From IMG/VR virus record IMGVR_UViG_2861084961_000001: 64,000 bases of DNA; one strand, 5' to 3'. Source of the DNA: a virus (lineage: Duplodnaviria > Heunggongvirae > Uroviricota > Caudoviricetes). Position numbers and translations under genes: made by a program. The notes beneath the pieces are model-generated. The model was not told the DNA's origin and did no database searches. It saw nothing but the letters and a program-made list of their open reading frames with translations. Of this stretch, positions 27,535 to 53,660 are shown piece after piece (position 1 is the stretch's first letter; each line of letters opens with the position of its first letter).

Positions 27535-28677
27535 ATGTCATATTCAACGTTCCGTTTGGGTGCTAATGATGCAACCAAAGAGCCTATGTTCCTCGGACAA
27601 TCTGTCAACGTGGCACGTTACGATCAGCAAAAATACCGTGATTTTGAAAAGTTGATTGAACGTCAATTGTCTTTCTTCTGGCGGCCGGAAGAAGTTGATA
27701 TTTCGAGCGATCGTATCGACTTCAACACGAAGCTGCGGGACCACGAACGTCACATTTTTCTGAGCAATCTCCGTTATCAAACGTTACTCGATTCAGTTCA
27801 GGGACGTAGCCCAAATGCAACGTTGCTGCCGCTTATCTCTATTCCTGAACTGGAAACGTGGGTTGAAACATGGTCTTTCTCTGAGACTATCCATAGCCGC
27901 AGCTACACCCACATTATTCGTGGCATGGTGGACGATCCGAGCATTGTTTTTGACGGTATTGTTACGGATGAAGAAATCATCAACCGAGCGATCAGTATCT
28001 CTGCTGAATATGACAGGCTTTATGGGATGACCTGCGAGCGCCAGTCGTTAGGTGAGAAGGAGTTTGAACGTCTGTACGTAAATGAATATGGCTGGGAGCC
28101 ATACCCTTTGCACCGTCAGCTTTTCCGCACGTTGGTGTCCATTAATGCGCTTGAGGCGATCCGTTTCTATGTAAGTTTTGCATGTACGTTTGCCTTTGGC
28201 GAACGGAAGTTGCTTGAGGGTAACACCAAAATTATGCGCTTTATTGCCCGTGATGAAGCTCTGCATTGCGAAGGAACTGAACGCATGATCCGCTTCATGC
28301 GTACCGGTCGCGAAGGTTTATTGTGGAAAGAGATTGCTGCTGATGAAGAAAATGTCATTTACGACACCATGAAATCAGTCGCCGAACAAGAAATGAACTG
28401 GGCAGACTATCTCTTCAAAGACGGTTCGATGATTGGTTTAAACGCGGATATTCTGAAGACCTATGTAAAATACCGCACCAATCTGGCTATGAATCGTCTT
28501 GGCCTGAAGGCTTTATTTCCAGAGGTTACCACCGATCCGCTGATCTGGATGAACAAGTGGTTGTTAACCGACACACTGCAAATTGCACCACAAGAGGCAG
28601 AGCAAAGCACATATCTGGTAGGTCAGATCGATTCTACCGTGGATAAGGCTTCTCTAAGCCAGTTTGCTGACCTGTAA
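27535..28677 (+). CDS. nrdB: ribonucleoside-diphosphate reductase beta subunit
   Basis: 380 aa; di-iron/tyrosyl-radical R2 pattern; start at ATG 27535 behind AAAAGGAAAAACACATG (track ORF starts at upstream TTG 27499). Confidence 0.85.
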
Positions 28678-28754
28678 ACCGATACAAAGCATTATGTGGC
28701 CTGGCAACGCTGGGCCACAATGGATCACAAGAATTAAGAAGGAACAAAACTAGC

Positions 28755-29624
28755 ATGAACTTTACCAAACTGACTGACCACCTGAAACTTGCCACCGATC
28801 GACTCATTGGATTTAAACCAGAACCATATGAGTTGCATGAAGGTCATGGTGTAGCTACTGAAAGTATTTACAAGATGGTCGATCAGTTTCATGAACTCTT
28901 CCAGCATCCGAGACGCGTTATGCCGACACCAGAGCTGCTTCGTCTCCGTGCAAGCCTGATTCATGAAGAAGCTGTAGTGGAAGGTATTCCAGCCGCAATG
29001 AATGGGGATATTGAGCAACTGCTGGATGCAATGGCCGACTTTTTATACGTTGGTGTTGGTACGATGGTCGCCATCAAAGGTGGTATTTCTACCGGCATGA
29101 CCTATTACACGCAGGAACAGAGCATTGATCGCTTTATGCAGACAATTTTTGTGCCTGGTAACACTGTTTTCGATGATATGGCAATGCCATTTCAGGAAGC
29201 TCGTGAGGCGTCATGTATGCTCGAAGAGCTGGCAGATAAACTTGAGAACAAGACTGTTAAGGATTCTGAGCTGATTCAGGAACTGCGCCGTGTCATGAAC
29301 AAAATCTATGTGGCGTGCATGATGACCTATCGACTGGCTGATTTCCTCGGTATCAATGTCGTCGAGCTGGTTGGCGAAATTCATCGGTCCAACATGACAA
29401 AATTATGGCCTGCAGATGCCGAAGAGCGTCGCCATGCTGTGGCCAACTGCAAATACGACTCTTCTGACCTGGGATTTCGCCATGCTGATGGCACCGATAA
29501 GATGATCGGTTTTCGAATTTCCGATGGAAAAATTCTGAAGTCTCCAACCTATAGTGATGTCGATTTATCCTCCTTTGTTGAGCAAGCTAAAGCCTCAGCA
29601 ATGTACGGAATGATCAAAAAATAA
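28755..29624 (+). CDS. putative MazG-like nucleoside triphosphate pyrophosphohydrolase (two-lobed)
   Basis: Weak: two helical blocks with acidic clusters (LIHEEAVVEGIPAAMNGDIEQLLDAMADFLYV and LVGEIHRSNMTKL); position in nucleotide-metabolism cluster. Confidence 0.3.
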   Translation: MNFTKLTDHLKLATDRLIGFKPEPYELHEGHGVATESIYKMVDQFHELFQHPRRVMPTPELLRLRASLIHEEAVVEGIPAAMNGDIEQLLDAMADFLYVGVGTMVAIKGGISTGMTYYTQEQSIDRFMQTIFVPGNTVFDDMAMPFQEAREASCMLEELADKLENKTVKDSELIQELRRVMNKIYVACMMTYRLADFLGINVVELVGEIHRSNMTKLWPADAEERRHAVANCKYDSSDLGFRHADGTDKMIGFRISDGKILKSPTYSDVDLSSFVEQAKASAMYGMIKK

Positions 29625-38463: not shown

Positions 38464-39030
38464 ATGTGCAAGAAATGCAAAGCGATAGCTGATGAACAAA
38501 ACGCCTTATTCGAAGAAATGGATGCTAATGAACTGGTCAAAATGTTAGCCATTCTTCGAGGAATAGAAGACGTTTCCATATTTGAGAGAGTGGTTACAGC
38601 ACTTAATTTTGAGTCCACCTTTGAAGAGCCAACTCAGGTTGTAGCTTTAGCACATCATTTCGGTGTTCATTATCTTGCTGAAAAAGAGAGAGCTGATAAG
38701 TTGCAAGCGACTTTGGATATGGTGAGCGAGACTCAAGGAACTCATGACGGTAACAAAAGTGAGACGATTATTGCCAGCAAAGATCGTGAAATTGCCGGGC
38801 TTAAATCCTCTCTAACGATGTTGATGTCTGCAATTAACCTTATGTCTTCTAAAGCAGGTTATAAAATGCCATCACTAAACAGCGACGATCCGATGGCCGT
38901 TCGCCAGCTTTTAGGTGCAATGGCCGACCAGCTCGACGACACAAAGAGTCGCCTTGAAGACATGATGCGGGAGCTCACGCATCGCCATGACTTGAATAAG
39001 CAGCCACACAAAACGCAATACGCACTCTAA
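38464..39030 (+). CDS. hypothetical protein (188 aa)
   Basis: ORF track; AGGAAAAACACATG context. Confidence 0.45.
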   Translation: MCKKCKAIADEQNALFEEMDANELVKMLAILRGIEDVSIFERVVTALNFESTFEEPTQVVALAHHFGVHYLAEKERADKLQATLDMVSETQGTHDGNKSETIIASKDREIAGLKSSLTMLMSAINLMSSKAGYKMPSLNSDDPMAVRQLLGAMADQLDDTKSRLEDMMRELTHRHDLNKQPHKTQYAL

Positions 39031-39047
39031 TACTGCACCAGTCGACA

Positions 39048-39069
39048 GGGGGCGAAAGCCCCCATTTTT
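39048..39069 (+). terminator. rho-independent terminator GGGGGC-GAAA-GCCCCC plus T5
   Basis: Perfect stem plus ATTTTT. Confidence 0.6.
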
Positions 39070-39127
39070 ACGCCTTAAATCTGCTGTAACGCCTATGAAT
39101 GCAGCTTTTATGCCTTTTCAAGTTTGC

Positions 39128-39173
39128 GATAATTACACCAATAAGAAAACAAATTATTTAATGGTGTAATTAT
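39128..39173. promoter_or_regulatory. 12-bp perfect inverted repeat ATAATTACACCA / TGGTGTAATTAT enclosing a degenerate motif B; right arm overlaps the methyltransferase start codon
   Basis: Arms at about 39129-39140 and 39162-39173; ATG at 39172. Confidence 0.4.
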
Positions 39174-40857
39174 GAATACAGCCCTTTCCATCATCGACGA
39201 TGCCAGCTCAAACACGGCTATCGACTATCGTCAGGAAATGAATGTCATCCACGAAATCGTGGACGAGTGCGAGAAAGAGATCGCCTTCATGTATCAGGTA
39301 CACGACTTCGTTTATGGCGACGAACGCCACAACATGATTAATCGCCTGCTGAGACTAAACCATCGACCAGATGAAGATCGCTCGCGTTTAAATCGAGGTT
39401 GGTTGGATAAAGTTGATCTGGAATGGGTGAAACAGAATATTTGGGCCGAGTACTGGAGGAAGGTCACGGACATGACTAACGTTTTGCTGATCATGCCAGC
39501 TTCCCGTCGAGATGAGTGGCGCGAGCAGTTTATAGAGGGCAAACAGGAAGTCATCAAAACTGACAGAACCGGCTACCAGATGAAGGTTAAAGAGTTCGTT
39601 GGTGTACCGGAGTTCAAAGCAGAAACGGTCATACCCACGATGCTTAATTTGCTGAATGACAGGCACAAATATCTCTCTGAGCGCGTGTATGGCTTGTTTA
39701 AGGCGCTGAGTCCTGCGCACAAGACAAATAAGACAAACGGTTTCAGCGAGCGTCTGATAATCGCTGACTGCATTTCTGATTTCTGGCGGGACAGCGTTAG
39801 CGTGAACTATCGCAAAGAGGACTACATCGACGATCTGCGTGTCTTGCTTCATTTCTTCGCGCACAAAGAATTTATTACCATCAACCGCACTGCTGAGGTG
39901 CTATCAGCTGCGTATCGGGCAAACGACTGCCAGACCGGTGACTGGATGAACGTCGATGGAAATCTGATGCGCGTGAAGATGTTCAAGAACGGCAACGTTC
40001 ACTTTGAAATACATCCTGACGTGGCCTGGAAGTTGAATGAGGTGCTGGCTTACAGTATGCCTGCTGCAATCCCCGCGCCATGCCGAACTGCGCCAAAAAC
40101 ACGGGCACCAAAGCAGTTCGGTTTAATCCAGAAGACGATCTCCGTGCCGGTTCGCACTGCGCTTCGTGACGGGCGATTGAGCAAAGACAAAGGCGTATGG
40201 TACTTCTCTGATTCAGCTCTCCAGAAGTCGCAGGTGGAAGAGCTTGAGCGCACACTGAGCTTCATTGGCGGCGTGCAGGAGAAAAAGCACTGGCAGTTCC
40301 CGTATGACATCGGCCATACGCTAAATACGATTGTGGCTACCGGTTTAATACCGGATACAAAATCACACCAGTTCTACCCTACCCCACGCTTGATTGCTGA
40401 GTACGTTGCCAGAGCCACTGAATTGAAGCCTGGTGAGAAGCTGCTTGAGCCTCACGCCGGACGTGGGGATCTTCTGGCCTATATTAACGCCGATCTGGAA
40501 GATGTTACCTGCATAGAAATCGCACCTCTCTTCGCTGATATCCTGCGTGGAAAAGGGTATACGAACACGATTTGCTGCGACTTCATAAAGTGGTCTGAGG
40601 ACAACGCAGGTTATCAGTTCGACAAAATCGTTATGAACCCGCCGTACTCGCTTGGTCGTCATAGGGAGCACACGATGGCTGCGCTGGGGCATCTGAAAGT
40701 CGGCGGGCGTCTTGTAGCAGTATTGCCGGGCACTGCGCCAATACTGGACTGGATGACGATGGATAATTACGTTTATGCCAGAGGGAAGTCGTTTACCAAC
40801 GAGTTTGAAGACACAGGGATCACAGTCAGCGTATACGTTTTCAAACGCGTTAAATGA
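39172..40857 (+). CDS. DNA methyltransferase with about 400-aa N-terminal domain of unknown function and C-terminal NPPY-type catalytic domain
   Basis: LEPHAGRGDLL (SAM-binding-like) and DKIVMNPPYSLG; 561 aa intact. Confidence 0.6.
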   Translation: MNTALSIIDDASSNTAIDYRQEMNVIHEIVDECEKEIAFMYQVHDFVYGDERHNMINRLLRLNHRPDEDRSRLNRGWLDKVDLEWVKQNIWAEYWRKVTDMTNVLLIMPASRRDEWREQFIEGKQEVIKTDRTGYQMKVKEFVGVPEFKAETVIPTMLNLLNDRHKYLSERVYGLFKALSPAHKTNKTNGFSERLIIADCISDFWRDSVSVNYRKEDYIDDLRVLLHFFAHKEFITINRTAEVLSAAYRANDCQTGDWMNVDGNLMRVKMFKNGNVHFEIHPDVAWKLNEVLAYSMPAAIPAPCRTAPKTRAPKQFGLIQKTISVPVRTALRDGRLSKDKGVWYFSDSALQKSQVEELERTLSFIGGVQEKKHWQFPYDIGHTLNTIVATGLIPDTKSHQFYPTPRLIAEYVARATELKPGEKLLEPHAGRGDLLAYINADLEDVTCIEIAPLFADILRGKGYTNTICCDFIKWSEDNAGYQFDKIVMNPPYSLGRHREHTMAALGHLKVGGRLVAVLPGTAPILDWMTMDNYVYARGKSFTNEFEDTGITVSVYVFKRVK

Positions 40858-42003: not shown

Positions 42004-42062
42004 GCGCTACAAATCCTTCTGCATGAATAAATAAAGGCCATAACTTATGGCCTTAAATAAAT

Positions 42063-42122: not shown

Positions 42123-42764
42123 ATGTCTAGTATTTCCGAAGCTCATATGTTCGCCGCTGGCGCTCATGGTGGCGTTGGTCAGAAAAGAAAATATACCGGC
42201 GAAGACTACATCAACCACCCGGTTGCTGTACGAGAGATTGTTGCATTGCATGACGGAACCGTGGATATGCAAATCGCGGCGCTTCTGCATGATGTGGTCG
42301 AAGACACCCATGTAACCATAGAGATGGTTCGTGATCACTTCGGTGAGCGCGTAGCTGAAATGGTTCAGGCTCTGACCAACATTGCAAGGCCAGAAGACGG
42401 CAATCGAATACAGCGTTTCATCATCAATGTCCGGGAGCTGGAGCAAAATCTCGACATGCAGACGCGCATGATCAAGCTGGCTGACCTGCTCGACAATACC
42501 TCTTCTATCGTGAGTCGCGATCCTGAGTTTTCAGCTATCTACCTTGCAGAGAAAGAGCTGATGCTGGACGTACTTTTTAACGGGAAGGAGATTGGTGCCA
42601 ACGCTGATGTTGTCGAGTACATGGAGAGGATAGGTATAGAACACCCGTTGCTATTAAGCGCAATGGCGAAAGTCACTGAAGGTATTGCGCTTCTGAAACC
42701 GGAACACATCAAACGTTATGAAAAACACAAATCGCTGATCTGGAGCGCGTGGGAGGCTGCATGA
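42123..42764 (+). CDS. HD-domain phosphohydrolase resembling the RelA/SpoT (p)ppGpp hydrolase domain
   Basis: AHGGVGQKRKYTGEDYINHPVAVREIVAL...AALLHDVVEDT matches the SpoT-type HD signature; 213 aa, no synthetase domain. Confidence 0.55.
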   Translation: MSSISEAHMFAAGAHGGVGQKRKYTGEDYINHPVAVREIVALHDGTVDMQIAALLHDVVEDTHVTIEMVRDHFGERVAEMVQALTNIARPEDGNRIQRFIINVRELEQNLDMQTRMIKLADLLDNTSSIVSRDPEFSAIYLAEKELMLDVLFNGKEIGANADVVEYMERIGIEHPLLLSAMAKVTEGIALLKPEHIKRYEKHKSLIWSAWEAA

Positions 42765-42907
42765 AGGTAGAAAAAATAGATGTTCTTTCCTTTGTGCTGA
42801 CGGATCTGGAACGTCTCGATCCGGTTCGAGTGATGATTGAAAACTACGAACCTGGTAAGGGAAGAATCACCATCACCTGCTACGGAAAAGCGTGGACTGC
42901 GGCTTAG
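42761..42907 (+). CDS. small ORF (48 aa) coupled to HD gene by ATGA overlap
   Basis: Read from sequence; below track length cutoff. Confidence 0.25.
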   Translation: MKVEKIDVLSFVLTDLERLDPVRVMIENYEPGKGRITITCYGKAWTAA

Positions 42908-42913
42908 TTTGCT

Positions 42914-43303
42914 ATGGGCGGTGATGATGTGCAGACGTTCATCAAGCGAGTTAGCAACGACTATCTAATCGACAATTTCGACCCTCAACTGCTAAGCACG
43001 GTCGACGATGACAACGATGCAAATCTGCTTTTCGTGAAGTCAGAAATCATAAAGTTACGAAGAGAGAGAGAAATCGACGCCGTACTAGCTCGTGAAATGT
43101 GGGACGAGGCGGAAAACGCCGATGACGTAAAAGAAAGCTGCTGTTGTTTCGGCGTCGGTAACAAACTGTTGAATCTCTTTGGTGATGATCCGTGGTATGC
43201 CGACTGGCCAACTGTACCAAACCCGAAATACCAGTATCTGGAACGCATTGTGAACGCGGTACGTGAAGGGCTGAAAGAGTTAGACAAGTTAGAGGCATCG
43301 TAA
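42914..43303 (+). CDS. hypothetical protein (129 aa)
   Basis: ORF track. Confidence 0.4.
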   Translation: MGGDDVQTFIKRVSNDYLIDNFDPQLLSTVDDDNDANLLFVKSEIIKLRREREIDAVLAREMWDEAENADDVKESCCCFGVGNKLLNLFGDDPWYADWPTVPNPKYQYLERIVNAVREGLKELDKLEAS

Positions 43304-43758
43304 TGAGAGAGAAAATCAAGAACCCGGTCGTCGTATTGTATAAACGGGAAACCAGCGATTCTTATGCGGTATCCATCACTGATGGAAGCCAGAACATGCA
43401 CGATGGTCTGCTAATGGCCGCCGTATCTCCTGATGATTCGGACTACCCTTTCGCCACTTTCGCTATGGTTGGTTACTACATGGCTGCCGAAATTGAGAAG
43501 TTGCGGGCGCAGAGAGACGCATTAGCGGCGGAGAATGCAGCCCTGAAAGAATCTGAGCGAGCATTCGATGCGATGTGTGCCGAGGAACACGGAGATAATT
43601 GGGTTAGCGAATTAACGGAGACTCCAGCCACCGATGCTTTTCTGGCTGAAGTACGTGCGCAGGGCGTGGAGATGTTTGCGGAGTGTGCATACACACTTGA
43701 ACATCATGATCACGCAGTAGCTTTTGCCGCCGAGCTACGTAAAGGAGATAGACAGTGA
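43303..43758 (+). CDS. hypothetical protein (151 aa)
   Basis: ORF track. Confidence 0.4.
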   Translation: MREKIKNPVVVLYKRETSDSYAVSITDGSQNMHDGLLMAAVSPDDSDYPFATFAMVGYYMAAEIEKLRAQRDALAAENAALKESERAFDAMCAEEHGDNWVSELTETPATDAFLAEVRAQGVEMFAECAYTLEHHDHAVAFAAELRKGDRQ

Positions 43759-44228
43759 GTGAGATTAACTACCTGGCGTTACGTGAGCGTTATTCACCAA
43801 AACCAGCGCCTAGATGCTCTGTTTGTGGCGAGGAAATGTCAATACAGCGCATATCTGGAGCACATGTCGTTTATGCCTGCTCCGGTGAGGGTGATGACGG
43901 ATATTTTAAGATAGGACGTACTTTTGCAGACGAACATTATGAAAAATCACGCGTAACAGTAGTTGATGATAGTGATCCCGATGTGATTGCACTGCTGGAA
44001 GAACTGGATAAAAGACGACATTACATCGGACGTCTTGAGCAGGAGAACGTAGAGATGGCCCTAACGCTTGAGAAGCTGCGTGTTGAGATGAAGGCAGCCA
44101 AATCAAAACTCAACGAGCAGCGTGAGTATTACGAAGGTGTTATCTCGGATGGAAGCAAGCGCATAGCCGCTCTTCTTTGCAAGGACAATCTTGTCAGCAC
44201 CACGAACATTGAAGGTGAAAGAAGATGA
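43755..44228 (+). CDS. hypothetical protein (157 aa) with N-terminal CxxC...C cluster and coiled coil
   Basis: ORF track. Confidence 0.4.
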
Positions 44229-44548
44229 CCACATCGCATTCTGCTATTACCCAGGAAAAAGCCTTCAACATACTCGAACGACTAGAGACGCTCGCTACGG
44301 AGGAGGAGATATCCCTGGAGAAACTGGTTGAGTTCAGCCGTGTGATATTGCGTCGCAAGAACGATATGGAGCGGCTGACATCTGGCGCTCCATCCTTATC
44401 AGCCAGGCGAACACTTTGTTGCAGCTTCTGCAACAAATCCCAGTACGCCGTCAAAAAGTTAATTGCTGGGGACGCCGTTTTCATCTGCGACGAGTGTGTG
44501 GATGTGTGCAACAGAATTATCCGGGGAGAGAAAGAGGGATCAGCATGA
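44225..44548 (+). CDS. small protein with ClpX-type zinc-binding domain at C-terminus
   Basis: [35 protein letters not shown] matches the ClpX N-terminal C4 zinc-finger pattern. Confidence 0.5.
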
Positions 44549-45096
44549 AATTTTCCAAATTTTCTGAGTCGGTGAATCGTATTTTGTCCAACAACCACAG
44601 CCATCGTCGCGATATGGATGTAACGATCGTTGTTCATTCGCCTGGTCGCATCGGTTCAACACCATCAGTTGAGGTTCAGTCAATTCAGGCGGGTTTTGAT
44701 TGGGATGCCGGGCAAGTGATGATTTTTCCAGCACAGCCACTGACCACGCTAACACCGGAGCAGGTTGCTGATATTACTGAAAGTGTGCACAAAGGCCAGT
44801 CATGGCACGCGTATCAGGAATACAAGAAGCATAAAGAGCAGTTGGAAAAATTGTCGATGGAGTTGGAAGCCGCTAAACAGAGGGAAAAAGATCTGTTTAT
44901 GGAAAATGTTCGACTTAAGTCAGGTATAGCCGGTCTGATACACCTCGGTATTCGATATGCGGATGTCGAGGTCATGAAAATAGCTGGAGATGCCCAGCTT
45001 TCTACTCCCTGTACTGACAGCATCATAAACAGTATTGCATCAGGCGTTTTCACCAAAGAGGGTCAGCATGATGAGAACAGTAGAAGTTCGCGCTGA
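44545..45096 (+). CDS. hypothetical protein (183 aa)
   Basis: Internal ATG 44545 overlapping upstream stop inside track ORF 44416..45096. Confidence 0.4.
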
Positions 45097-45256
45097 AGAT
45101 GTAACCCCAGGCGATGTGGTCATAACATCTAAAGGCAAACGATGTGCGGTTAAATCTTTCTGGATGAACGGTGAAAAAGTGACTCTGTTCGGTACGGATG
45201 GTTCCGAAACTGATTATGACTACGACGAATTGCTTGTTGTTGAGAGAGCTACCTAA
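45068..45256 (+). CDS. hypothetical small protein
   Basis: Track ORF 45035..45256, RBS-supported internal start. Confidence 0.3.
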   Translation: MMRTVEVRAEDVTPGDVVITSKGKRCAVKSFWMNGEKVTLFGTDGSETDYDYDELLVVERAT

Positions 45257-45792
45257 TGACCACCTTTACCAAAGAACAGTTAATCTCCCATGCACGCGAA
45301 AGCGTTAGTTATCTGGAAGACTTGAAAGGACGTGTTAGTAAAGAAGGAGCGGACTGCAAAGTTGTTCATGAGATGGTTGAACGAGATCTAAAACTGGCTC
45401 GAATTGCGCTGACCTCACTGGAGGCAGAGCCAGTGGCGTGGCAGGTAACACTCACAAAAAACGATCAGGAATCAGTCTCTATTATTTACCGTGACTGTGC
45501 AGAGAAAGATACATGGGTTCGGATATATGAGTCACTCGGTTCTGTCGCACATGTTGCCCCGCTTTACATGGCGCAGCCAGAACCGTCGAAGGAGGAGAAA
45601 GGACGTTCAGTCATCCAGGGTAAAGCCGATAATTCACCATTGCCGCGCTACCAGGTTATCGAATTAACAATGCTGGTTAAACAATTGGTCAGCCAACTGA
45701 AAAAAGCAAAACCTGATTGCAAATTACCGGATAGGGCGATGGATTATCTTTTGCGGAACGGACTGCTAAGTGTGGAGGATGCCTTACGATGA
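45256..45792 (+). CDS. hypothetical protein (178 aa)
   Basis: ORF track. Confidence 0.4.
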   Translation: MTTFTKEQLISHARESVSYLEDLKGRVSKEGADCKVVHEMVERDLKLARIALTSLEAEPVAWQVTLTKNDQESVSIIYRDCAEKDTWVRIYESLGSVAHVAPLYMAQPEPSKEEKGRSVIQGKADNSPLPRYQVIELTMLVKQLVSQLKKAKPDCKLPDRAMDYLLRNGLLSVEDALR

Positions 45793-46067
45793 TTGAAATG
45801 ACAAAAGAAGAACTAACACAGGCAACAAAGGATTACGGAAAAATGCACATCGCACATCGTATGGCGAATGTGTTACTGGCCTTGTCTGAACAAAAGCCAT
45901 CTGCGTTTGTAATGAAAGATGATTTGGCCGATCCGGCAATTGTTTCGACTCCGGCATATTTAGATATTGAGGATGCGGAACAAAAAACGATTGGGATATT
46001 GTCGCGCTTTATGCCGATCCCTTTCCTGTCATCGGCGACACTACTGCTCTTGTGGACGATATTTTAA
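45789..46067 (+). CDS. hypothetical protein (92 aa)
   Basis: ORF track. Confidence 0.35.
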   Translation: MIEMTKEELTQATKDYGKMHIAHRMANVLLALSEQKPSAFVMKDDLADPAIVSTPAYLDIEDAEQKTIGILSRFMPIPFLSSATLLLLWTIF

Positions 46068-46375
46068 ACATTCTCGCGCTTCTTGAGGCTGGCGATTGGT
46101 CAGAACATTGCACTAAAACGGAGTTAGGCGGTCGGCTTGAAAGAGAGATTACACAACTTATTGGTGATGCCCAAAATGATTTGTCACCTGAGCATCTCCC
46201 CTGCGATGTAGTCCTTGTGCCAGGGATGAGGATACACGAAGGCGTCAGAACGAAAACATTATTAACCGCATTACAGAGAAGAGCCGAACTAAGCTCGCGG
46301 ATAAAGTTGATGCCATCCAAAATATTTGATGTCGTCAAATTTACGCCATCGCAACATACTGAGAGAGATAAATGA
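46052..46375 (+). CDS. hypothetical protein (107 aa)
   Basis: ORF track. Confidence 0.35.
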   Translation: MDDILNILALLEAGDWSEHCTKTELGGRLEREITQLIGDAQNDLSPEHLPCDVVLVPGMRIHEGVRTKTLLTALQRRAELSSRIKLMPSKIFDVVKFTPSQHTERDK

Positions 46376-46998
46376 GCACGGTAGCGAAAGATCTCACAGA
46401 AGATATTCTCAATGAAATTATTGTTGGTGCAAATACCTCGCTTGAGCAACTTCTTGCGTTAGCACTGAGAGCCGAACGTCGAGACAGAAATCGTTTTTAT
46501 GAGCGATTACCTGGGAAACGACCAGATAGATCAGATGAAGAAGGTTGCGATATAGACTACATGGAGCCTTCAGAGATTTATCAACTTGGTAAAGATGACG
46601 GCTGGAACGCTTATCACGATGCTGTGATGAAGTTGGATGAAAAAGTTAAACCTCTTTCTCGAACGGTAGATCACGGTTTCCGCGATAACTGCGAATGCTC
46701 TAGTTGCCAGACCACGGCCCGTATTTGTTCCGAATTGACAGATAAATCCAGCCTAATCTACGAAGTTAATGTAGGCGGTAATACATGGGTCGAATGCACA
46801 AGAGCTGCATACGTAAGAGCAAAAGACAAGGGTGAATTAACCAGAGTTGTTGCCCATCACCCAAATAATGAGCTTAAAGATCACCAAATTCGAGAACTGG
46901 TGAACGAGTTGAGGGATATTGCGGTTCAGTACCACGGAACGCAGCAATTGCGGGAGAAGATTGCCAGAGCAGTGAACAACTCAGTCCGTAAAAAATAA
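46372..46998 (+). CDS. hypothetical protein (208 aa)
   Basis: ORF track; followed by hairpin AGGCCCCAT...ATGGGGCCT at 47006-47030. Confidence 0.45.
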   Translation: MSTVAKDLTEDILNEIIVGANTSLEQLLALALRAERRDRNRFYERLPGKRPDRSDEEGCDIDYMEPSEIYQLGKDDGWNAYHDAVMKLDEKVKPLSRTVDHGFRDNCECSSCQTTARICSELTDKSSLIYEVNVGGNTWVECTRAAYVRAKDKGELTRVVAHHPNNELKDHQIRELVNELRDIAVQYHGTQQLREKIARAVNNSVRKK

Positions 46999-47440
46999 GC
47001 AATAGTACGATAAAGAGGCCCCATGCTCTTGATGGGGCCTGTAGCAACTAGCGTTATGGACGCTGGTTTACGTACTCAATGATCGCTTTGATAATCGCGA
47101 ACATCGGCGGCACGATTTTGAACAGTAAGTTAACCATAACAGGCCTCACTTAGTTTTATCGCGCCTAGCTGCAAATACCTTTGGGCTTGCCTTTGCAGTT
47201 GCAATATCTGTAGTCGCCAGATACTTACGGCACGATTTCGAGTTAAGGTAAGGTTTTAGAGTCACCAAAAACCTGGACTTAAATCTTCTTTGAGAACAAC
47301 GATGTTTAGTAAATGGTCATTATTACCTGGTATGACCACTCAACGTTTCTTGATGAATCCAGTACATTCGGTTAATCTTAATTCAGTCGCCAGATACTTA
47401 TGGCTCAGGAACAGAGCCGCAAACTCTGTTTCCTTTTAAA

Positions 47441-47469
47441 AAGCCCAGCCTAGTCAACTGGGCTTTTTA
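47441..47469 (+). terminator. rho-independent terminator AAGCCCAG-loop-CTGGGCTT plus T5, preceded by a second hairpin at about 47408-47433
   Basis: Stem-loops with T-run inside a 760-bp non-coding stretch. Confidence 0.5.
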
Positions 47470-47763
47470 ATGTCTATTTTTAACCCAATGAACCTTCAAT
47501 ACCGCAACATCAGTGTCTTGCGAATTAAGATAGTGTGTATAGGTTATACATGCAAGTGCATAACTCTGTGGATAACTCAGGAAGGAAAAAGTAGCTTCCG
47601 CGCAATTTAGGCCAGACAAGGCTTTCGCAAAAATCAACGGAGAGAAAAAAATTTGTTAAAAATAACGTTTGTTGGAATTGTATATATTTATGCCTTTCAA
47701 TAGTTAGCATCTTATTAACATCTTTTTTAAGAGATAGAGTTCAAAAATATATAGCTTCAACAT

Positions 47764-47783
47764 ATACTGTATGCATATACAGT
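47764..47783. promoter_or_regulatory. LexA (SOS) box TACTGTATGCATATACAGTA
   Basis: Perfect CTGT-N8-ACAG palindrome about 17 bp upstream of the umuD-like start. Confidence 0.7.
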
Positions 47784-47800
47784 ATTAAGAGGCGAGTATT

Positions 47801-48190
47801 ATGGGCTTCCCTTCTCCTGCGGCGGATTATGCTGAGAGCCGTATTTCTCTTGATCAGCAGATAATTAGACATCCTTCAGCGACCTACTTCTTGAGGGCAG
47901 CTGATAGCCATCATCGTGAGGGAATATTGCAGGGTGCATTGCTGGTGGTCGATTCCTCACTCACTCCTGTTGATGGATCTCTTCTTGTATGTGCTCTGGA
48001 TGGGGAATATCGCGTAAAAAGATACCGGAAGTATCCACGTCAGCATCTGGAGGATTTAAGAACTGGTAAGAAGGAAGCATTGCCAAAGGATGATGATGGA
48101 TGCACGGGCAGCAATGCCGTGTTTGGTGTGATCACTCACATTATCAACGACGCAAGAAGTGGCGAGTTTGATGATTGTCCTGTGATGTAG
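47801..48190 (+). CDS. umuD: UmuD-prime-like protein (S24 peptidase fold, begins at the position matching the UmuD cleavage product)
   Basis: MGFPSPAADYAESRISLDQQIIRHPSATYFLRA...DGEYRVKRY matches the recalled UmuD core from residue 25 onward. Confidence 0.65.
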   Translation: MGFPSPAADYAESRISLDQQIIRHPSATYFLRAADSHHREGILQGALLVVDSSLTPVDGSLLVCALDGEYRVKRYRKYPRQHLEDLRTGKKEALPKDDDGCTGSNAVFGVITHIINDARSGEFDDCPVM

Positions 48191-48201
48191 GAGAACTGTT
48201 T

Positions 48202-48222
48202 AGGTGGTGCATTGCACCACCT
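48202..48222. terminator. perfect palindromic hairpin AGGTGGTGCA-T-TGCACCACCT between convergent umuD-like and mrp
   Basis: 10-bp perfect stem; T-run on plus strand. Confidence 0.45.
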
Positions 48223-48227
48223 TTTTA

Positions 48228-49328
48228 TCACACTGCGCGGAATGCGATTTCGCCAGGTATTACTTCACCTTGCCAATACATTTGGGCAGCAACGCGATCT
48301 GCGAGGTCACGATAAATAGCCGTAAATTCGCTATCTGGACGACTAATAACGGTTGGTGTTCCGTTATCCAGATCCTCACGAAGAGAGATATGAAGTGGCA
48401 TTTGGCCTAACAACTGCGTGTTGTATTTCTCGGCCAGTTTCTGTGCGCCACCGGTGCCAAAAATTGGCTCGTGATGACCGCAGTTACTGCAAATATGCAC
48501 ACTCATGTTTTCGACGATACCTAGTACCGGCACTTCGACTTTTTCGAACATCACAATGCCTTTCTTCGCATCGATCAGCGCGATGTCTTGCGGCGTAGTT
48601 ACCACAACCGCACCAGTTACAGGAATGTTCTGCGCCAGCGTCAATTGAATATCACCAGTGCCCGGCGGCATATCGAGAACGAGATAGTCCAGATCAGGCC
48701 ACAGTGTTTCCTGCAACATCTGCATCAGCGCCTTGCTGGCCATCGGTCCACGCCACACCATTGCATTGTCGTCGGTGACCAGATAACCAATAGAGTTGGT
48801 TGCCAGGCCATGAGACATGATAGGTGCCATGTGAGTACCGTCCGGTGAGGTTGGACGTTGGTTTTCCGCACCCAGCATGGTTGGAATTGATGGACCGTAG
48901 ATATCGGCATCCAAAATACCAACTTTCGCACCTTCAGCAGCCAACGCCAGTGCCAAGTTTACTGCTGTGGACGATTTGCCTACACCGCCCTTGCCTGAGC
49001 TGACGGCGATGATGTTCTTAACGCCATTAATGCCTGGTTGGTTTTTGACGCGCTTAAGCGTGGCAATGTTGTACGACAGCTTCCAGTCGATAGCCTTTGC
49101 GCCAGTGATACGGAGCAGATCACCACTACATTGCTCTTTCAGGTCTTCAAAAGGCTTATTCCACACGAAAGGCATGATTAGTTCGACATGCAGTGTGTCA
49201 TCCATCAACGCAACATGGTGTAACGCTTTAAGCGTAGTCAGGTTGTGCTTCAGGGTTGGGTGCTGAAAATTAGCCAGCGTACCGGCTACCATTGCTCTCA
49301 GGGCATCCGGCGATTTGGACTCGCTCAT
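48228..49328 (-). CDS. mrp: Mrp/ApbC Fe-S cluster carrier ATPase, intact, host-type
   Basis: 366 aa; deviant Walker A SSGKGGVGKSSTAVNLA, CxxC motif; near-identical to recalled E. coli Mrp. Confidence 0.9.
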   Translation of the reverse strand: MSESKSPDALRAMVAGTLANFQHPTLKHNLTTLKALHHVALMDDTLHVELIMPFVWNKPFEDLKEQCSGDLLRITGAKAIDWKLSYNIATLKRVKNQPGINGVKNIIAVSSGKGGVGKSSTAVNLALALAAEGAKVGILDADIYGPSIPTMLGAENQRPTSPDGTHMAPIMSHGLATNSIGYLVTDDNAMVWRGPMASKALMQMLQETLWPDLDYLVLDMPPGTGDIQLTLAQNIPVTGAVVVTTPQDIALIDAKKGIVMFEKVEVPVLGIVENMSVHICSNCGHHEPIFGTGGAQKLAEKYNTQLLGQMPLHISLREDLDNGTPTVISRPDSEFTAIYRDLADRVAAQMYWQGEVIPGEIAFRAV

Positions 49329-49485
49329 CCCGTCTCCTTTATTTTAATTTGCGCAATTGTCGCCTTGTAGTGTACTCCAGCTACGACATTTAATCATTTA
49401 TGAGAAATGCTGTTATCACATGGCAGACATAAGGCCATTTTGTTACTATCAAGCCCCTTTTCACTACAAAGAAGTAATGCCTACT

Positions 49486-51519
49486 ATGACCCAAGTCGCG
49501 AAGAAAATTCTGGTGACGTGCGCGCTGCCGTACGCTAACGGCTCAATCCACCTCGGCCATATGCTGGAGCACATCCAGGCTGATGTCTGGGTTCGTTACC
49601 AGCGAATGCGCGGCCACGAGGTTAATTTCATCTGTGCCGACGATGCCCACGGTACGCCGATCATGCTGAAAGCACAGCAGCTTGGTATCACACCGGAACA
49701 GATGATTGGCGAAATGAGCCAGGAACACCAGACTGATTTCGCAGGCTTTAACATCAGCTATGACAACTATCACTCGACGCACAGCGAAGAGAACCGCCAG
49801 CTGTCTGAGCTTATCTATACTCGCCTGAAAGAGAACGGTTTTATTAAAAACCGCACTATCTCTCAGTTGTACGACCCGGAAAAAGGCATGTTCCTGCCGG
49901 ATCGTTTTGTGAAAGGCACCTGTCCGAAATGTAAAGCGCCAGATCAATACGGCGATAACTGTGAAGTTTGCGGCGCGACCTACAGCCCGACTGAACTGAT
50001 TGAGCCGAAATCGGTAGTTTCTGGCGCTACGCCGGTAATGCGTGATTCTGAACACTTCTTCTTTGATCTGCCCTCTTTCAGCGAAATGTTGCAGGCATGG
50101 ACCCGCAGCGGTGCGTTGCAGGAGCAGGTGGCAAACAAAATGCAGGAGTGGTTTGAATCTGGTCTGCAACAGTGGGATATCTCCCGCGACGCACCTTACT
50201 TCGGTTTTGAAATTCCGAACGCGCCGGGTAAATATTTCTACGTCTGGCTGGACGCACCGATTGGCTACATGGGTTCCTTCAAGAATCTGTGCGACAAGCG
50301 CGGCGACACTACCAGCTTCGATGAATACTGGAAGAAAGACTCCACCGCCGAGCTGTACCACTTCATCGGTAAAGATATCGTTTACTTCCACAGCCTGTTC
50401 TGGCCTGCCATGCTGGAAGGCAGCAACTTCCGCAAGCCGACCAACCTGTTTGTTCACGGCTATGTGACGGTGAACGGCGCGAAGATGTCCAAGTCTCGCG
50501 GCACCTTTATTAAAGCCAGCACCTGGTTGAATCATTTTGACGCTGACAGCCTGCGTTACTACTACACCGCCAAACTGTCTTCGCGCATTGATGATATCGA
50601 TCTCAACCTGGAAGATTTCGTTCAGCGCGTGAATGCCGATATCGTGAACAAAGTGGTTAACCTGGCCTCCCGTAATGCGGGCTTTATCAACAAACGTTTT
50701 GACGGCGTGCTGGCAAGCGAACTGGCTGACCCGCAACTGTACAAAACCTTTACTGATGCCGCTGAAGTGATTGGCGAAGCATGGGAAAGCCGCGAATTTG
50801 GTAAAGCTATCCGTGAAATCATGGCATTGGCTGACCTGGCTAACCGCTATGTCGATGAACAGGCTCCGTGGGTGGTGGCGAAGCAGGAAGGACGCGATGC
50901 CGATCTGCAGGCGATTTGCTCTATGGGCATTAACCTGTTCCGCGTGCTGATGACTTACCTGAAACCGGTACTGCCGAAACTGACAGAACGTGCGGAAGCA
51001 TTCCTCAATACGGAACTGACCTGGGATGGCATCCAGCAACCGCTGCTGGGCCATAAAGTGAATCCGTTCAAAGCACTGTATAACCGTATCGACATGAAAC
51101 AGGTGGAAGCATTGGTGGAAGCGTCTAAAGAAGAAGTGAAAGCTACTGCCGCGCCAGTTACTGGCCCGCTGGCAGACGACCCGATTCAGGAAACCATCAC
51201 CTTTGACGACTTTGCCAAAGTTGACCTGCGCGTGGCGCTGATCGAAAACGCAGAGTTTGTTGAAGGTTCTGACAAACTGCTGCGCCTGACGCTGGATCTC
51301 GGCGGTGAAAAACGTAATGTCTTCTCAGGCATCCGTTCCGCTTATCCAGACCCACAGGCACTGATTGGCCGTCACACCATTATGGTGGCTAACCTGGCTC
51401 CGCGTAAAATGCGTTTCGGTATCTCCGAAGGCATGGTGATGGCTGCTGGCCCCGGCGGGAAAGACATCTTCCTGTTAAGCCCGGATGCTGGTGCTAAACC
51501 TGGCCACCAGGTTAAGTAA
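49486..51519 (+). CDS. metG: methionyl-tRNA synthetase, intact, host-type
   Basis: [29 protein letters not shown] (HIGH-type), KMSKS, C-terminal tRNA-binding domain; start at ATG 49486 inside track ORF 49357..51519. Confidence 0.95.
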
Positions 51520-51540
51520 TTAAGCAACCATTCTTCACAA

Positions 51541-51566
51541 TGCCCGGCAATACGCTGGGCATTTTC
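51541..51566 (+). terminator. rho-independent terminator after metG
   Basis: TGCCCGGC-AATAC-GCTGGGCA plus TTTT. Confidence 0.6.
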
Positions 51567-51602
51567 ATATAGACACAATCCCTTCTGACTTTAACAAACC
51601 CT

Positions 51603-51668
51603 AAAACAATTTGTTTTCTGCCTTTTGTTGATTGAGATAATAAGCCACATAAGAAAACAAATTGTTTC
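51603..51668. promoter_or_regulatory. two motif B palindromes (AAAACAA-T-TTGTTTT and GAAAACAAATTGTTTC)
   Basis: Immediately right of the metG terminator, upstream of 51681 gene. Confidence 0.45.
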
Positions 51669-51680
51669 GGAGTGGTTGAA

Positions 51681-51980
51681 ATGTTGAACATTACCCAAGC
51701 CTACCAGGTGGCATTGATCAGTTCATCTCATACATCAGAGGAAGATGCTCGCCGATTCATGATCGCAAGCAATGAGCTGGATTGGGTTTCGCAAATTGAC
51801 GGCGGTTGTATTGTCCACGCCGGGTTACAGGATGATGTCTGGAAAGACGACTTGCGTCGATATGGTATATCCGAAGGCGCGATTGCTAACATTCAGAAAG
51901 TACTTGATGTAGGCTTTGACTCTGTACATTTTGATTGTGGTGCGCCGGTCGTTGAAGGGCTTGAGTGCTGGAACTGGTAA
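51681..51980 (+). CDS. hypothetical protein (99 aa)
   Basis: ATG 51681 within track ORF 51672..51980; motif-B sites upstream. Confidence 0.4.
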   Translation: MLNITQAYQVALISSSHTSEEDARRFMIASNELDWVSQIDGGCIVHAGLQDDVWKDDLRRYGISEGAIANIQKVLDVGFDSVHFDCGAPVVEGLECWNW

Positions 51981-52025
51981 CAGATATTAAAGCATTGGTA
52001 GTTTGTTTTTAGGATTATCAAAGAA

Positions 52026-52759
52026 ATGAAAAAGTTGAAAAGTTTAGAAATCCCTGGGACTGGTTATAAATTCTTTATGGACAACGCGGAGTGTGCGCCT
52101 AACGCGTTGGAAAAAATACAAAGTCTTATCAACAGCCTTACTGAAGAAGCGAAAGAACTGAAGAGCGAGGCGACAAAGGACAATACAGCTAAAATCCAAT
52201 GCTTAAATCTCGTCTCTTATTGTTTATATCAAGTATCCAAAACACTGATTAAAGGCAATATCTATTACGACGATGAAGACACCTCGACACCTGAAGAAAA
52301 GATAGCGATGAAGAACTCTATGAAGATATCTCTACTAGTGCGGGTCACGCTGCCTTCGATGCTATGGGTAAATCGTCAGGCATCAGATCATTTGTTGAAC
52401 AGAACAATTCGACAATAATGATTGAGTACTGTGAACAAACAAGCTCCAAGGCCATACATGTTCTTCACGATGTTGCTGCAGGGGTTCGTTGTGAGGCTGA
52501 AGCGGTAAGAAAAGATGTATTTGGTGCAGACAGTAATACCGTGAAAGCGTTTATCAACAGTGCTCTGCTAAATTCTTACTCAAACCTTATAGTCAATGCG
52601 GCACTATGCGCAAATTCAGGTGAAGAACACATTGTCATAACCGAAACCAAACATGAGCATCAACAGTCACCAACCATAGAAGAGGTAACTGCATTGGCTA
52701 TCAAACAGGCGAGTGAAATTAGTGATGAAATTCTCTCTCTGCTAAACAAAACTAGGTAA
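52026..52759 (+). CDS. hypothetical protein (ORFs 52026..52418 and 52364..52759, probably one gene)
   Basis: ORF track; overlapping frames. Confidence 0.35.
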
Positions 52760-52869
52760 AACATTGATAATGGCGGTCACAATTTGATTCTTTTCTATAA
52801 GAATCCGTTGATCGCCACTACTCCCCTTCCATACCTGCAATCACATCCTTAAATATCAATAGGTTGTAG

Positions 52870-53660
52870 TTGTTTATACAAACAAGAAAACAACTGAATA
52901 ACAGATCAACGAAACGTCAACGCTTTCACCCGATTTGGTCTAAAAAATTGACGTTTTCACACATCACTTCTTATACCCGCAATCCTACGCAGCAGACAGC
53001 GCCACAGCGTCCAATTTTCACCACAGACGACCCAACACACCACCAACAAAAACACACGCTCAAAATCGCTCTCGTTGCGTTACATAACCATATAAACAAC
53101 TTATTTTCAGGCATAACAAAACAACTAAATAACACATACGCAATTCCCAAAAACAACCAACCTCTTTATTGCAGGCTACCGAAAAGACCCACCTCTTCTT
53201 CCCAGGCTACCGGACAACCAACCTAACTTTCACAGGCAATCCGAAAACATTCATGCGCGCGATACCCACGACACGCCATTCCCCAAACAGCGAAGAAACA
53301 CCTGAACCACCGAAACCCCAACGAAGCCTGTAACCGCAAGGATTCTCTCAATCCCAAAAGACACGAAACATAACAATCACGGGAAACGCCATTACCCAAT
53401 ACACGAATAACTACAAAAGCCTTTCACACACTCCAGACAAACAACTCAAACACAATAACGAAAGGAATCGCCCACCTGCCATTACTCCATACACGGAGAA
53501 GAACAAGCACCAAAACGACGAGAACATCCCACAGAAGAACCACCGCAAAACTAACGAAACCATTTACACCGACAGAGAGAACAACACACCCAATTCACCA
53601 ACAGAATTAGTCGCCGTATAGAACGTTCTGGAAGGAGTGAGCATTAACGTCCATAGAGAG
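52870..53660. repeat. strand-asymmetric CA-rich non-coding region containing CAGGCTACCG-type direct repeats
   Basis: Plus strand almost free of G or T runs for about 800 bp; only ORF there is low-complexity; repeats near 53170, 53200, 53235. Confidence 0.45.

Follow-up and report, generated by a model that had tools for sequence, protein, structure and literature searches.

We analysed a 64,000-nucleotide stretch of the IMG/VR virus record IMGVR_UViG_2861084961_000001, referred to here as the window; coordinates are positions in it unless stated otherwise. The window contains a 3.4 kb cargo cassette (48191–51595) with two intact, divergently oriented genes of host type: apbC (synonym mrp), coding for an iron-sulfur (Fe-S) cluster carrier, and metG, coding for methionyl-tRNA synthetase (MetRS). 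That this cassette is real, old and lineage-wide on an Escherichia phage-plasmid we consider practically certain. It is probably a long-kept, self-contained auxiliary gene cassette that goes back to an old capture, whose metG has been patched by gene conversion and which may be selected as a supply of both proteins. The feature is host-derived auxiliary cargo on a temperate element. It is common, conserved and easy to test, and nothing points to a new mechanism so far.

Genes and proteins of the cassette

The apbC gene (48228–49328, minus strand) codes for a P-loop ATPase of 366 amino acids and was identified from the open reading frame (ORF) list, a match to the profile NF008669, sequence motifs and its identity to the gene of Escherichia coli K-12. 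The metG gene (49486–51519, plus strand) codes for a MetRS of 677 amino acids including the C-terminal tRNA-binding domain. In this case the assignment is based on NF001100, on motifs and on the alignment with K-12. The ORF list gives a TTG at 49357, which is only an upstream extension of metG. Since the ATG at 49486 aligns with the start codon of the K-12 locus, the start of metG was placed there.

Both products match an NCBIfam equivalog profile over their full length. For MetRS, NF001100 yielded 1019.8 bits (cut-off 587), with residues 4–677 aligned to profile positions 3–676 of 676, and the protein is above the cut-offs of TIGR00398 and TIGR00399 as well. It comprises the Pfam domains tRNA-synt_1g, Anticodon_3 and tRNA_bind and contains the motifs HLGH (residue 22) and KMSKS (residue 333) together with the zinc-knuckle motifs CPKC (residue 146) and CEVC (residue 159). 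The best hits among solved structures are those of E. coli MetRS (PDB entries 1F4L, 1QQT and 1P7P); residues 1–551 align end to end with 1F4L and 1QQT. ApbC matches NF008669 with 759.3 bits (cut-off 348; residues 2–366 on profile positions 5–369 of 369) and Pfam PF10609 with 342 bits. Its deviant Walker A motif GKGGVGKS is located at residue 112 and the C-terminal cluster-binding CXXC motif, CSNC, at residue 280. Judged from sequence, both proteins are of canonical type, MetRS being an E. coli-type MetRS1 class I synthetase and ApbC an NBP35-type ApbC/Mrp carrier. We predict with high confidence that both enzymes are active.

A first, sequence-only reading of the window had described mrp and metG as intact and divergent genes inside a phage-plasmid and as nearly identical to the enterobacterial chromosomal versions. 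The former statement was confirmed by the genes for 366 and 677 residues and by the element DNA on both sides. The latter is correct for the proteins: MetRS differs from its K-12 counterpart in 8 out of 677 residues (98.8% identity) and ApbC from K-12 Mrp in 19 out of 365 (94.8%). The DNA, however, shares no more than 88.3% identity with K-12 over the block, and homology does not extend beyond positions 48232–51520, approximately from stop codon to stop codon.

The host element and the cargo slot

By nucleotide identity the host element is assigned to the Escherichia phage-plasmids of the SSU5/pHCM2 type, more precisely to the Cyrano/pLF82 group. The region from 40 to 60 kb of the window is 96% identical to the Escherichia phages CMS-2020a, Cyrano and PhiR41_1, and the cassette flanks are 96–97% identical to Cyrano and CMS-2020a. 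Salmonella phage SSU5 matches the same region with 84% identity over 23% of its length. In Cyrano, the stretch homologous to the window is annotated with RepA, the DNA polymerase III alpha subunit, recombination genes, ribonucleotide reductase, ThyX and DHFR; the tail, lysis and ParA genes lie outside of it. Cyrano is the plasmid pLF82 of adherent-invasive LF82, a phage-plasmid with approximately 5.5 copies per cell that is inducible by genotoxic stress (SOS) and makes virions (PMC9928086).

The cassette boundaries were obtained from a comparison with pTB212 (NZ_CP033252.1), a sister phage-plasmid with another cargo. Homology between pTB212 and the window stops after the stop codon of the gene humD (48190/48191) and resumes at approximately 51596, at a palindrome-containing promoter module of the element. 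The cassette was therefore delimited as 48191–51595. In pTB212 and three other sister plasmids (approximately 91% identical) the space between humD and a DUF5983 gene is taken by a reverse-oriented DUF4145 gene, the product of which is weakly similar to PD-T7-4, a candidate defence protein. SSU5 has neither humD nor the block, and a search with both flanks joined found no empty site. By this comparison the cassette lies in a hot spot of the kind typical of accessory genes, with a terminator on one side and the following promoter of the element on the other.

Elsewhere, pTB212 carries a yeh-type chaperone-usher fimbrial operon with 67–75% identity to yehDCB, the chromosomal left neighbours of mrp-metG. 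This operon may stem from a once larger capture or may be a coincidence.

Distribution of the cassette

The full 5.8 kb context of the cassette (47000–52800) is present with 97% identity on plasmids of approximately 108 kb in 114 complete E. coli genomes. In PLSDB, 200 out of 207 matches contain the full block (at least 80% coverage), nearly all of them on non-mobilizable plasmids of approximately 105–115 kb. The hosts are E. coli, E. fergusonii, E. albertii and Shigella, and the block occupies the same site in plasmids of all four. A plasmid-specific promoter segment was found in 226 of the 5426 complete E. coli genomes (4.2%). In this set the block is present at 223 plasmid places compared with 247 for a backbone marker, the DUF4942 gene, so that roughly nine out of ten E. 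coli plasmids of this type carry it. We also searched IMG/VR and metagenomes in a degenerate manner with WNKPFEDLKEQC, an ApbC peptide specific to the plasmid allele. All 48 contigs that contained the peptide (32 from IMG/VR and 16 from metagenomes) have flanks from the phage-plasmid backbone; the search retrieved phage-plasmid contexts only and no donor. Both genes are also present in four phage records, including PhiR41_1 with K-12 MG1655 as stated host. The same insertion thus recurs between humD and the DUF5983 gene in related phage-plasmids, where the sequence-only reading had proposed to look for it.

All 5426 complete E. coli genomes hold the chromosomal locus; the plasmid carriers are merodiploid. 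A sensitive search of these genomes resulted in 216 records with 95–99% identity to the block, only 2 records with 90–95%, and 5421 records in the 80–90% band. The chromosomal records listed are 87.8–88.5% identical to the block of the window. Because of this two-class distribution we regard the plasmid allele as a distinct lineage that coexists with the chromosomal one in its hosts.

Several records were considered and rejected. The plasmid pNJS001-2 (438 kb, reported as 90% identical) appeared to be an intermediate allele but consists of ordinary chromosomal yeh-apbC-metG DNA filed as a plasmid. Among candidates for independent captures, the sequence of Acinetobacter phage MD-2021a is host chromosome with dcd, pfs and emrB around mrp-metG, Pseudomonas phage Y5 is an unannotated record flagged UNVERIFIED with the native arrangement, S.Kent 1-2-1 is a 5 kb fragment, and the short records filed under phages of Salmonella, Listeria and Staphylococcus appear to be pieces of host DNA. 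Phage-filed records of this sort, with host-like DNA around mrp-metG (CAKLQF020000011.1, CAKLQH020000007.1, OQ572407.1 and OR850913.1), could be mistaken for independent captures.

Divergence from the chromosomal locus and probable gene conversion in metG

The two genes of the cassette have diverged from K-12 to different extents. For apbC the synonymous divergence (dS) is 1.57 and the non-synonymous divergence (dN) 0.035; for metG the values are dS = 0.30 and dN = 0.006. On the chromosome, a dS of 1.15–1.35 separates the apbC genes of K-12 and Citrobacter or Salmonella, and a dS of 0.28 the metG genes of K-12 and Escherichia sp. E1V33. In a sliding comparison the DNA identity to K-12 ranges from 79 to 89% in apbC and from 91 to 98% in metG, with 94% nucleotide identity between plasmid and E. 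coli metG. Relative to all chromosomes sampled, apbC and the promoter region have diverged by approximately 20% and are shifted towards AT. We compared 11 plasmid copies from three host species. Nucleotide differences to K-12 that are fixed in all 11 copies number 157 in apbC and 22 in metG. In a neighbour-joining tree apbC forms a long branch at the base of Escherichia, and metG is located inside Escherichia next to E. coli.

Base composition and codon usage, a comparison that the sequence-only reading had suggested, set the block apart from its flanks. The content of guanine and cytosine (GC) is approximately 50–52% in the block compared with 40–41% in the adjacent kilobases and 45.8% in the whole window. 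At third codon positions (GC3) it is 0.53 for apbC and 0.61 for metG, the latter being equal to E. coli. Orthologues of apbC in Escherichia, Citrobacter and Salmonella have GC3 values of 0.60–0.68, and most flanking plasmid genes have values of 0.39–0.50. Of 50 derived changes on the plasmid stem of apbC, 30 are from GC to AT and 9 from AT to GC; the Escherichia stem has 17 derived changes.

Within metG, a tract that resembles the E. coli chromosome was observed at positions 49980–50307 (plus strand; nucleotides 495–822 of the gene). Of the 10 informative sites in this tract, 8 agree with K-12 (permutation p ≤ 0.005), and the sliding identity to K-12 amounts to 96–98% compared with 91–94% elsewhere in metG. 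We consider this tract a probable gene-conversion patch. Significantly clustered K-12-like tracts were detected in 6 out of 11 plasmid metG copies, for example in pAVS0747-B with 29 out of 31 informative sites. Gene conversion from the host chromosome into plasmid metG has thus very probably taken place.

Based on these data we propose the following history of the cassette. In a first step the contiguous locus would have been captured once, a long time ago, from a chromosome of the Escherichia lineage. During a long residence on the plasmid, apbC and the promoter region would have diverged by approximately 20% and shifted towards the AT-richer composition of the plasmid. The better-conserved metG would have been converted repeatedly by resident chromosomal copies and in this way would have stayed E. 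coli-like.

The sequence-only reading had offered two explanations for the block, namely a recent capture by a mobile element and a chimeric assembly. In the latter case, chromosomal apbC-metG would have been misjoined into plasmid sequence. Plasmid and chromosomal metG are indeed similar enough (94%) that they may confuse assemblers, and one IMG/VR contig, IMGVR_UViG_2671181056_000013, does look chimeric. The block of the window, however, is the plasmid allele, with 88% identity to E. coli chromosomes and 96–99% to other plasmids, and neither junction differs among hundreds of independent complete plasmids, the phage genomes and the metagenome contigs. With the same junctions in the 114 complete genomes, approximately 200 PLSDB plasmids, 48 out of 48 contigs and the phage records, we give this explanation practically no weight. 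A recent capture from the chromosome of a present E. coli host would account for the near-identity of the proteins to K-12 and for the position of metG within Escherichia as sister to E. coli. It is highly improbable in view of the 12% nucleotide gap to the chromosomes of all 5426 complete E. coli genomes, the apbC dS of approximately 1.6, the intergenic region with 72–75% identity and the occurrence at the same site in plasmids of four hosts (E. coli, E. fergusonii, E. albertii and Shigella). What stands of that proposal is that host-type genes reside on a mobile element; the 88% identity and the apbC divergence argue against a recent event. Alternatively, the value or main consequence of the metG copy might be that of a homology anchor, the near-identity over its 2 kb allowing host recombination and with it integration, chromosome mobilisation or the shuttling of metG alleles between Escherichia species. 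In favour of this, the clustered chromosome-like tracts in plasmid metG indicate exchange from chromosome to plasmid, and E. coli, E. albertii, E. fergusonii and Shigella are the hosts between which the plasmids move. Yet the chromosomal alleles fall into the tight band of 87.8–88.5%, so that no large transfer from plasmid to chromosome is visible, and no convincing chromosomally integrated copy was found with the plasmid-specific promoter probe, whose matches on chromosomes were weak and partial. Nor would this role explain why apbC is retained. We regard a role as homology anchor as very unlikely.

Promoter region, terminators and element operators

The divergent region between apbC and metG (49329–49485) appears, from a comparison with chromosomal loci, to be kept from the donor. 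In its metG-proximal block, with a TACTAT hexamer and the 5' leader, sequence conservation extends to the chromosomal loci. The layout of the distal part is closer to Citrobacter werkmanii than to K-12, and the identity of the intergenic region to K-12 is 72–75%. A simple sigma-70 promoter scan detected no promoter-like site in this region; the promoter is predicted from the conservation with the chromosomal loci.

Hairpins are located at both ends of the cassette. Downstream of metG, a hairpin followed by UUUU (51539–51563, plus strand; -16.9 kcal/mol, z = -4.45) is a likely intrinsic terminator, although its T-run lies below the threshold of the terminator scan. It is not homologous to the K-12 metG terminator, the homology to K-12 ending at 51520. 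Between humD and apbC, the terminator scan of the plus strand detected a GC-rich hairpin (48202–48222) with -15.3 kcal/mol on the plus and -15.8 kcal/mol on the minus strand (z approximately -4). Because a U-tract is present only on the plus strand, this hairpin primarily represents the terminator of humD. For apbC it possibly acts as a bidirectional terminator at best. The earlier proposal that each of the two genes has its own terminator is thus supported for metG; the hairpin on the apbC side belongs in the first place to humD.

The palindrome AAACAANTTGTTT occurs at 14 sites in the window compared with 0.5 expected. All of these are intergenic and promoter-like in position, and the palindrome probably serves a single regulator encoded by the element as its operator. 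As the sequence-only reading had pointed out, the palindromes are shared by both sides of the block: they are found at 42055 on the left and at 51604 and 51655 on the right, with no site inside. The right-hand pair (51604–51616 and 51655–51667) forms a promoter/operator module of the element (51604–51667, plus strand) with which the backbone resumes. The same module is present in conserved form in pTB212, and the one at 42055 is similar to it. Over the window, the AAACAANTTGTTT sites span positions 782–56451 (for example 37706, 38433, 42055, 51604, 51655 and 54772) as repeated modules in front of many plus-strand genes.

With a native divergent promoter region and bracketing hairpin terminators, and without element operator palindromes, the cassette represents a self-contained transcription unit. 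A promoter and terminator of its own between phage transcription units are typical of a moron, and the cassette shares this organization.

Conservation and expression

The genes humD, apbC and metG are intact in all 11 plasmid copies. Most segregating sites are third codon positions (69 out of 76 in apbC and 211 out of 236 in metG), and the ratio of non-synonymous to synonymous polymorphism (pN/pS) within the plasmids is 0.007 for apbC and 0.012 for metG. For the plasmid stem of apbC, polarised changes (29 synonymous, 14 non-synonymous) resulted in a pN/pS of 0.15; the same method gave 0.13 for the Escherichia stem. A promoter segment of 391 bp (49100–49490) is at least 99% identical in 209 out of 226 E. 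coli records that hold it. This segment is too diverged for repair from the chromosome. The metG gene of pAMPD01 at first looked like a pseudogene. Its assembly contains scattered single-base indels in coding as well as non-coding regions, and we attribute the broken reading frame to a sequencing artefact.

Only three MetRS residues are fixed in the plasmids and different from K-12 (T319, I442 and K538). Each of them is common in other Enterobacteriaceae (46–74 out of 81 species), and no plasmid-specific MetRS residue was found. Divergence at or near the active site, which would be expected of an inhibitor-resistant second synthetase of the MupA kind, is absent from plasmid MetRS. As there is no lineage-specific residue, nothing indicates that the enzyme is altered or resists inhibitors.

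Transcription data are available for Cyrano in LF82, whose cassette is 97% identical. CYRAN_99 (apbC) was counted among the morons, with a level 9-fold above the silent prophage background and similar to that of the putative repressor (PMC9928086). CYRAN_100 (metG) has 16 normalised counts against a background of approximately 10 (about 1.6-fold) and is lower in macrophage samples (PMC9928086). In LF82, the apbC half of the Cyrano cassette is therefore transcribed like a moron, whereas the metG half is not.

Proposed function and alternative explanations

Both proteins would do their ordinary jobs, that is the charging of tRNAMet and tRNAfMet and the carrying of Fe-S clusters. The element would keep the cassette as an auxiliary supply at plasmid dosage (approximately 5 copies per cell and more on induction), and the extra Fe-S carrier together with the extra MetRS would aid lysogen fitness or phage yield. 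Faster growth or, after induction, plasmid replication may increase the transcription of MetRS. Any specific physiological benefit of this kind is tentative and, in our estimate, rather doubtful. A more elaborate version would be a "translation-initiation and Fe-S insurance" module that sustains the charging of Met-tRNA(fMet) and Fe-S maturation when the host copies are shut down or attacked. The triggers could be stress, toxins that target tRNAs or synthetases, defence systems or the element's own AtaT-like toxin. If this improbable version were true, phage production or lysogen survival would be secured, and metG sequence would be shuttled between Escherichia species by conversion.

Several points weigh against an old capture that is retained under selection as a supply. 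The low pN/pS within the plasmids overstates selection, because much of the diversity looks imported from chromosomal alleles that had already been filtered. A dosage benefit of MetRS in lysogens is not evident, since CYRAN_100 is barely above background. A donor search with MetRS covered at least 80 species, and the matches listed included no chromosome of E. albertii, E. fergusonii, E. marmotae or E. ruysiae. The best chromosomal match to the block among the matches listed was 88%, and a donor chromosome with a near-identical apbC possibly exists outside those sampled. In the literature we found no discussion of a metG/apbC cassette on SSU5-type plasmids.

The cassette could also be a neutral hitch-hiker that persists by linkage to the backbone and by continual conversion repair from the chromosome. 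The low metG transcription in LF82 lysogens, the largely imported diversity and a MetRS without plasmid-specific residues are all in line with this possibility. It does not account for apbC, which is too diverged to be maintained by conversion alone and is nevertheless intact in 11 out of 11 copies, with a stem pN/pS of 0.15 close to that of the chromosomal lineage. Nor does it account for the non-coding promoter segment, which is beyond chromosomal repair and yet at least 99% conserved. Moreover, the content of the slot changes in sister plasmids, which means that a cassette without use could be lost, and the sole broken copy was seen in the assembly riddled with single-base indels. Taken together, a neutral passenger is unlikely. 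In a further alternative the extra MetRS and ApbC would act as a counter-measure and buffer the element against toxins or defences that hit Met-tRNA charging, for example the AtaT-like GNAT toxin of the plasmid family. The Cyrano protein CYRAN_26, a toxin encoded together with an antitoxin (28190–29024 in Cyrano), is close to AtaT (PDB entries 6GTS and 6AJM, E = 1e-79), and AtaT acetylates aminoacyl-tRNAs, Met-tRNAfMet being among its targets (PMC7595197). Cyrano also carries three tRNA genes. On the other side, the cassette-less pTB212 keeps the same DUF1778/GNAT pair, which means that there is no specific co-occurrence, and extra MetRS would not be expected to remove acetylated aminoacyl-tRNA. 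PADLOC returned no match for MetRS and only a weak P-loop match for ApbC. We see only a slim chance for a counter-measure of this kind, and an old, self-contained cassette kept as auxiliary supply remains our preferred explanation.

In approximately 4% of complete E. coli genomes a transmissible phage-plasmid provides a second intact copy of an essential synthetase along with one of an Fe-S carrier, apparently without anyone having asked for the reason. If beneficial, the cassette would make this a rare temperate element that keeps a near-copy of core host translation machinery; to our knowledge, core translation genes on phages are otherwise known mainly from huge phages. The benefit is directly testable, as pLF82/Cyrano and PhiR41_1 are workable in the laboratory. 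The cassette also offers a clear natural case in which a paralogue on a mobile element has been converted by a chromosomal gene, with apbC as a built-in, largely unconverted control. In practical terms the presence of the paralogue can lead to errors in metG-based typing, in read mapping and in assembly, and one public viral contig already looks chimeric at metG.

Comparison with known systems

The cassette resembles the chromosomal mrp(apbC)-metG locus of K-12 (b2113-b2114) and of other Enterobacteriaceae in the divergent gene pair, the metG-proximal promoter and leader, the domains and the motifs. It differs in its location on a phage-plasmid, in the absence of the neighbours yehE and yehF, in its DNA (88% identity) and in its terminators. 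Plasmid ApbC is three residues shorter at the N-terminus, and most of its 18 fixed substitutions fall within residues 1–70; the GC3 of apbC is lower.

The closest known system is the same cassette in Cyrano/pLF82 (CYRAN_99/CYRAN_100, OV696614), which is annotated but not analysed there. It occupies the same site with 97% DNA identity, and its ApbC and MetRS are 100% and 99.9% identical to the proteins of the window. The two differ by alleles only, including other conversion patches in metG. The apbC homologue was named a "septum site-determining protein" moron (PMC9928086). The main text of that paper contains no mention of metG, MetRS or a tRNA synthetase, and MetRS occurs only as the product name of CYRAN_100 in S1 Table (PMC9928086).

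Virus-borne MetRS is also found in large phages such as Microcystis phage MaAM05 and 630 kb megaphages, presumably for translation. These enzymes are distant (24–30% identity) and belong to very large lytic genomes with many translation genes. Huge phages are reported to carry synthetases and tRNAs. By contrast, the present element is a 108 kb temperate phage-plasmid with a near-copy of the MetRS of its own host plus an Fe-S carrier. Besides this cassette, phage-borne MetRS was observed only as distant homologues in very large phages, and several other matches labelled as phage are host DNA.

The mupirocin-resistant IleRS MupA is a known case of an additional synthetase that is encoded on a mobile element while the chromosomal gene is retained (PMC9437257). 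MupA-type paralogues are strongly diverged from the housekeeping enzyme; plasmid MetRS is not. With prophage morons and auxiliary metabolic genes the cassette has in common that it is autonomous cargo in a variable slot between a terminator and the next phage promoter. In contrast to usual morons the cargo duplicates essential or housekeeping host genes instead of providing defence, virulence or niche functions, and its metG half is not moron-like in expression.

Neighbouring genes and further observations

The conserved left neighbour of the cassette is humD (47801–48190, plus strand), coding for a UmuD'-like S24 peptidase (NCBIfam NF051876, 217.7 bits, cut-off 120). The identical protein accession, WP_000506720.1, is present in most of the plasmids examined. 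Directly upstream of humD we read from the sequence a near-consensus LexA (SOS) box, TACTGTATGCATATACAGTA (47765–47784, plus strand). The consensus of LexA boxes is CTGT-N8-ACAG, and TACTGTATGCATATACAGTA matches it. In the LF82 data, the homologue of humD in Cyrano, CYRAN_98, rises from a log2 value of approximately 7 to approximately 12 in macrophage samples (PMC9928086), which is in line with this box. The approximately 800 bp upstream of humD (47000–47800) contain no convincing ORF and are variable among related plasmids. On the right-hand side the cassette is followed by the DUF5983 gene (51672–51980, plus strand; Pfam PF19419, 42.6 bits, cut-off 27).

Four database records with apbC-metG DNA are conspicuous. 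In IMGVR_UViG_2671181056_000013, pieces of the plasmid-type cassette lie beside a chromosome-type apbC piece (82.9% identical to the window); the record has the appearance of a chimeric assembly that arose through the shared metG. In IMGVR_UViG_2606217110_000013 the cassette (51536–48214) abuts position 42165, and humD together with ead/Ea22 genes (42166–48213) is deleted while the cassette is kept. NZ_CP146657.1, a cointegrate of 198 kb (conjugative IncC / rep_cluster_488), carries the cassette and humD beside a type I restriction-modification gene, which is evidence that the phage-plasmid is able to fuse with conjugative plasmids. CP170191.1, deposited as "Enterobacter hormaechei strain B56 chromosome", contains apbC-metG with 100% identity to K-12 MG1655 over 3.3 kb and is probably mislabelled or contaminated.

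No tRNA genes were found in the window, and Rfam gave no match at 44–56 kb. In Cyrano, the genes for tRNA-Asn, tRNA-Thr and tRNA-Ser (39021–39268 in Cyrano) are located outside the part homologous to the window. They fit a modest translation-support theme. A non-coding stretch of approximately 400 nucleotides at 53230–53610 shows an extreme excess of A and C over G and T on its plus strand (GC skew -0.19 and AT skew +0.33 at 53–54 kb). It has no Rfam match, and no tandem repeats were detected at 52.7–54.4 kb; the stretch could be a region of the Rho-utilisation type or an unstructured leader. Finally, 33 bp within a DUF4942 methyltransferase-like gene (39847–39879) match a feature annotated as "CRISPR" on the chromosome of E. 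coli AST85 (NZ_AP043644.1) with 100% identity, apparently an E. coli CRISPR spacer directed against this family of phage-plasmids.

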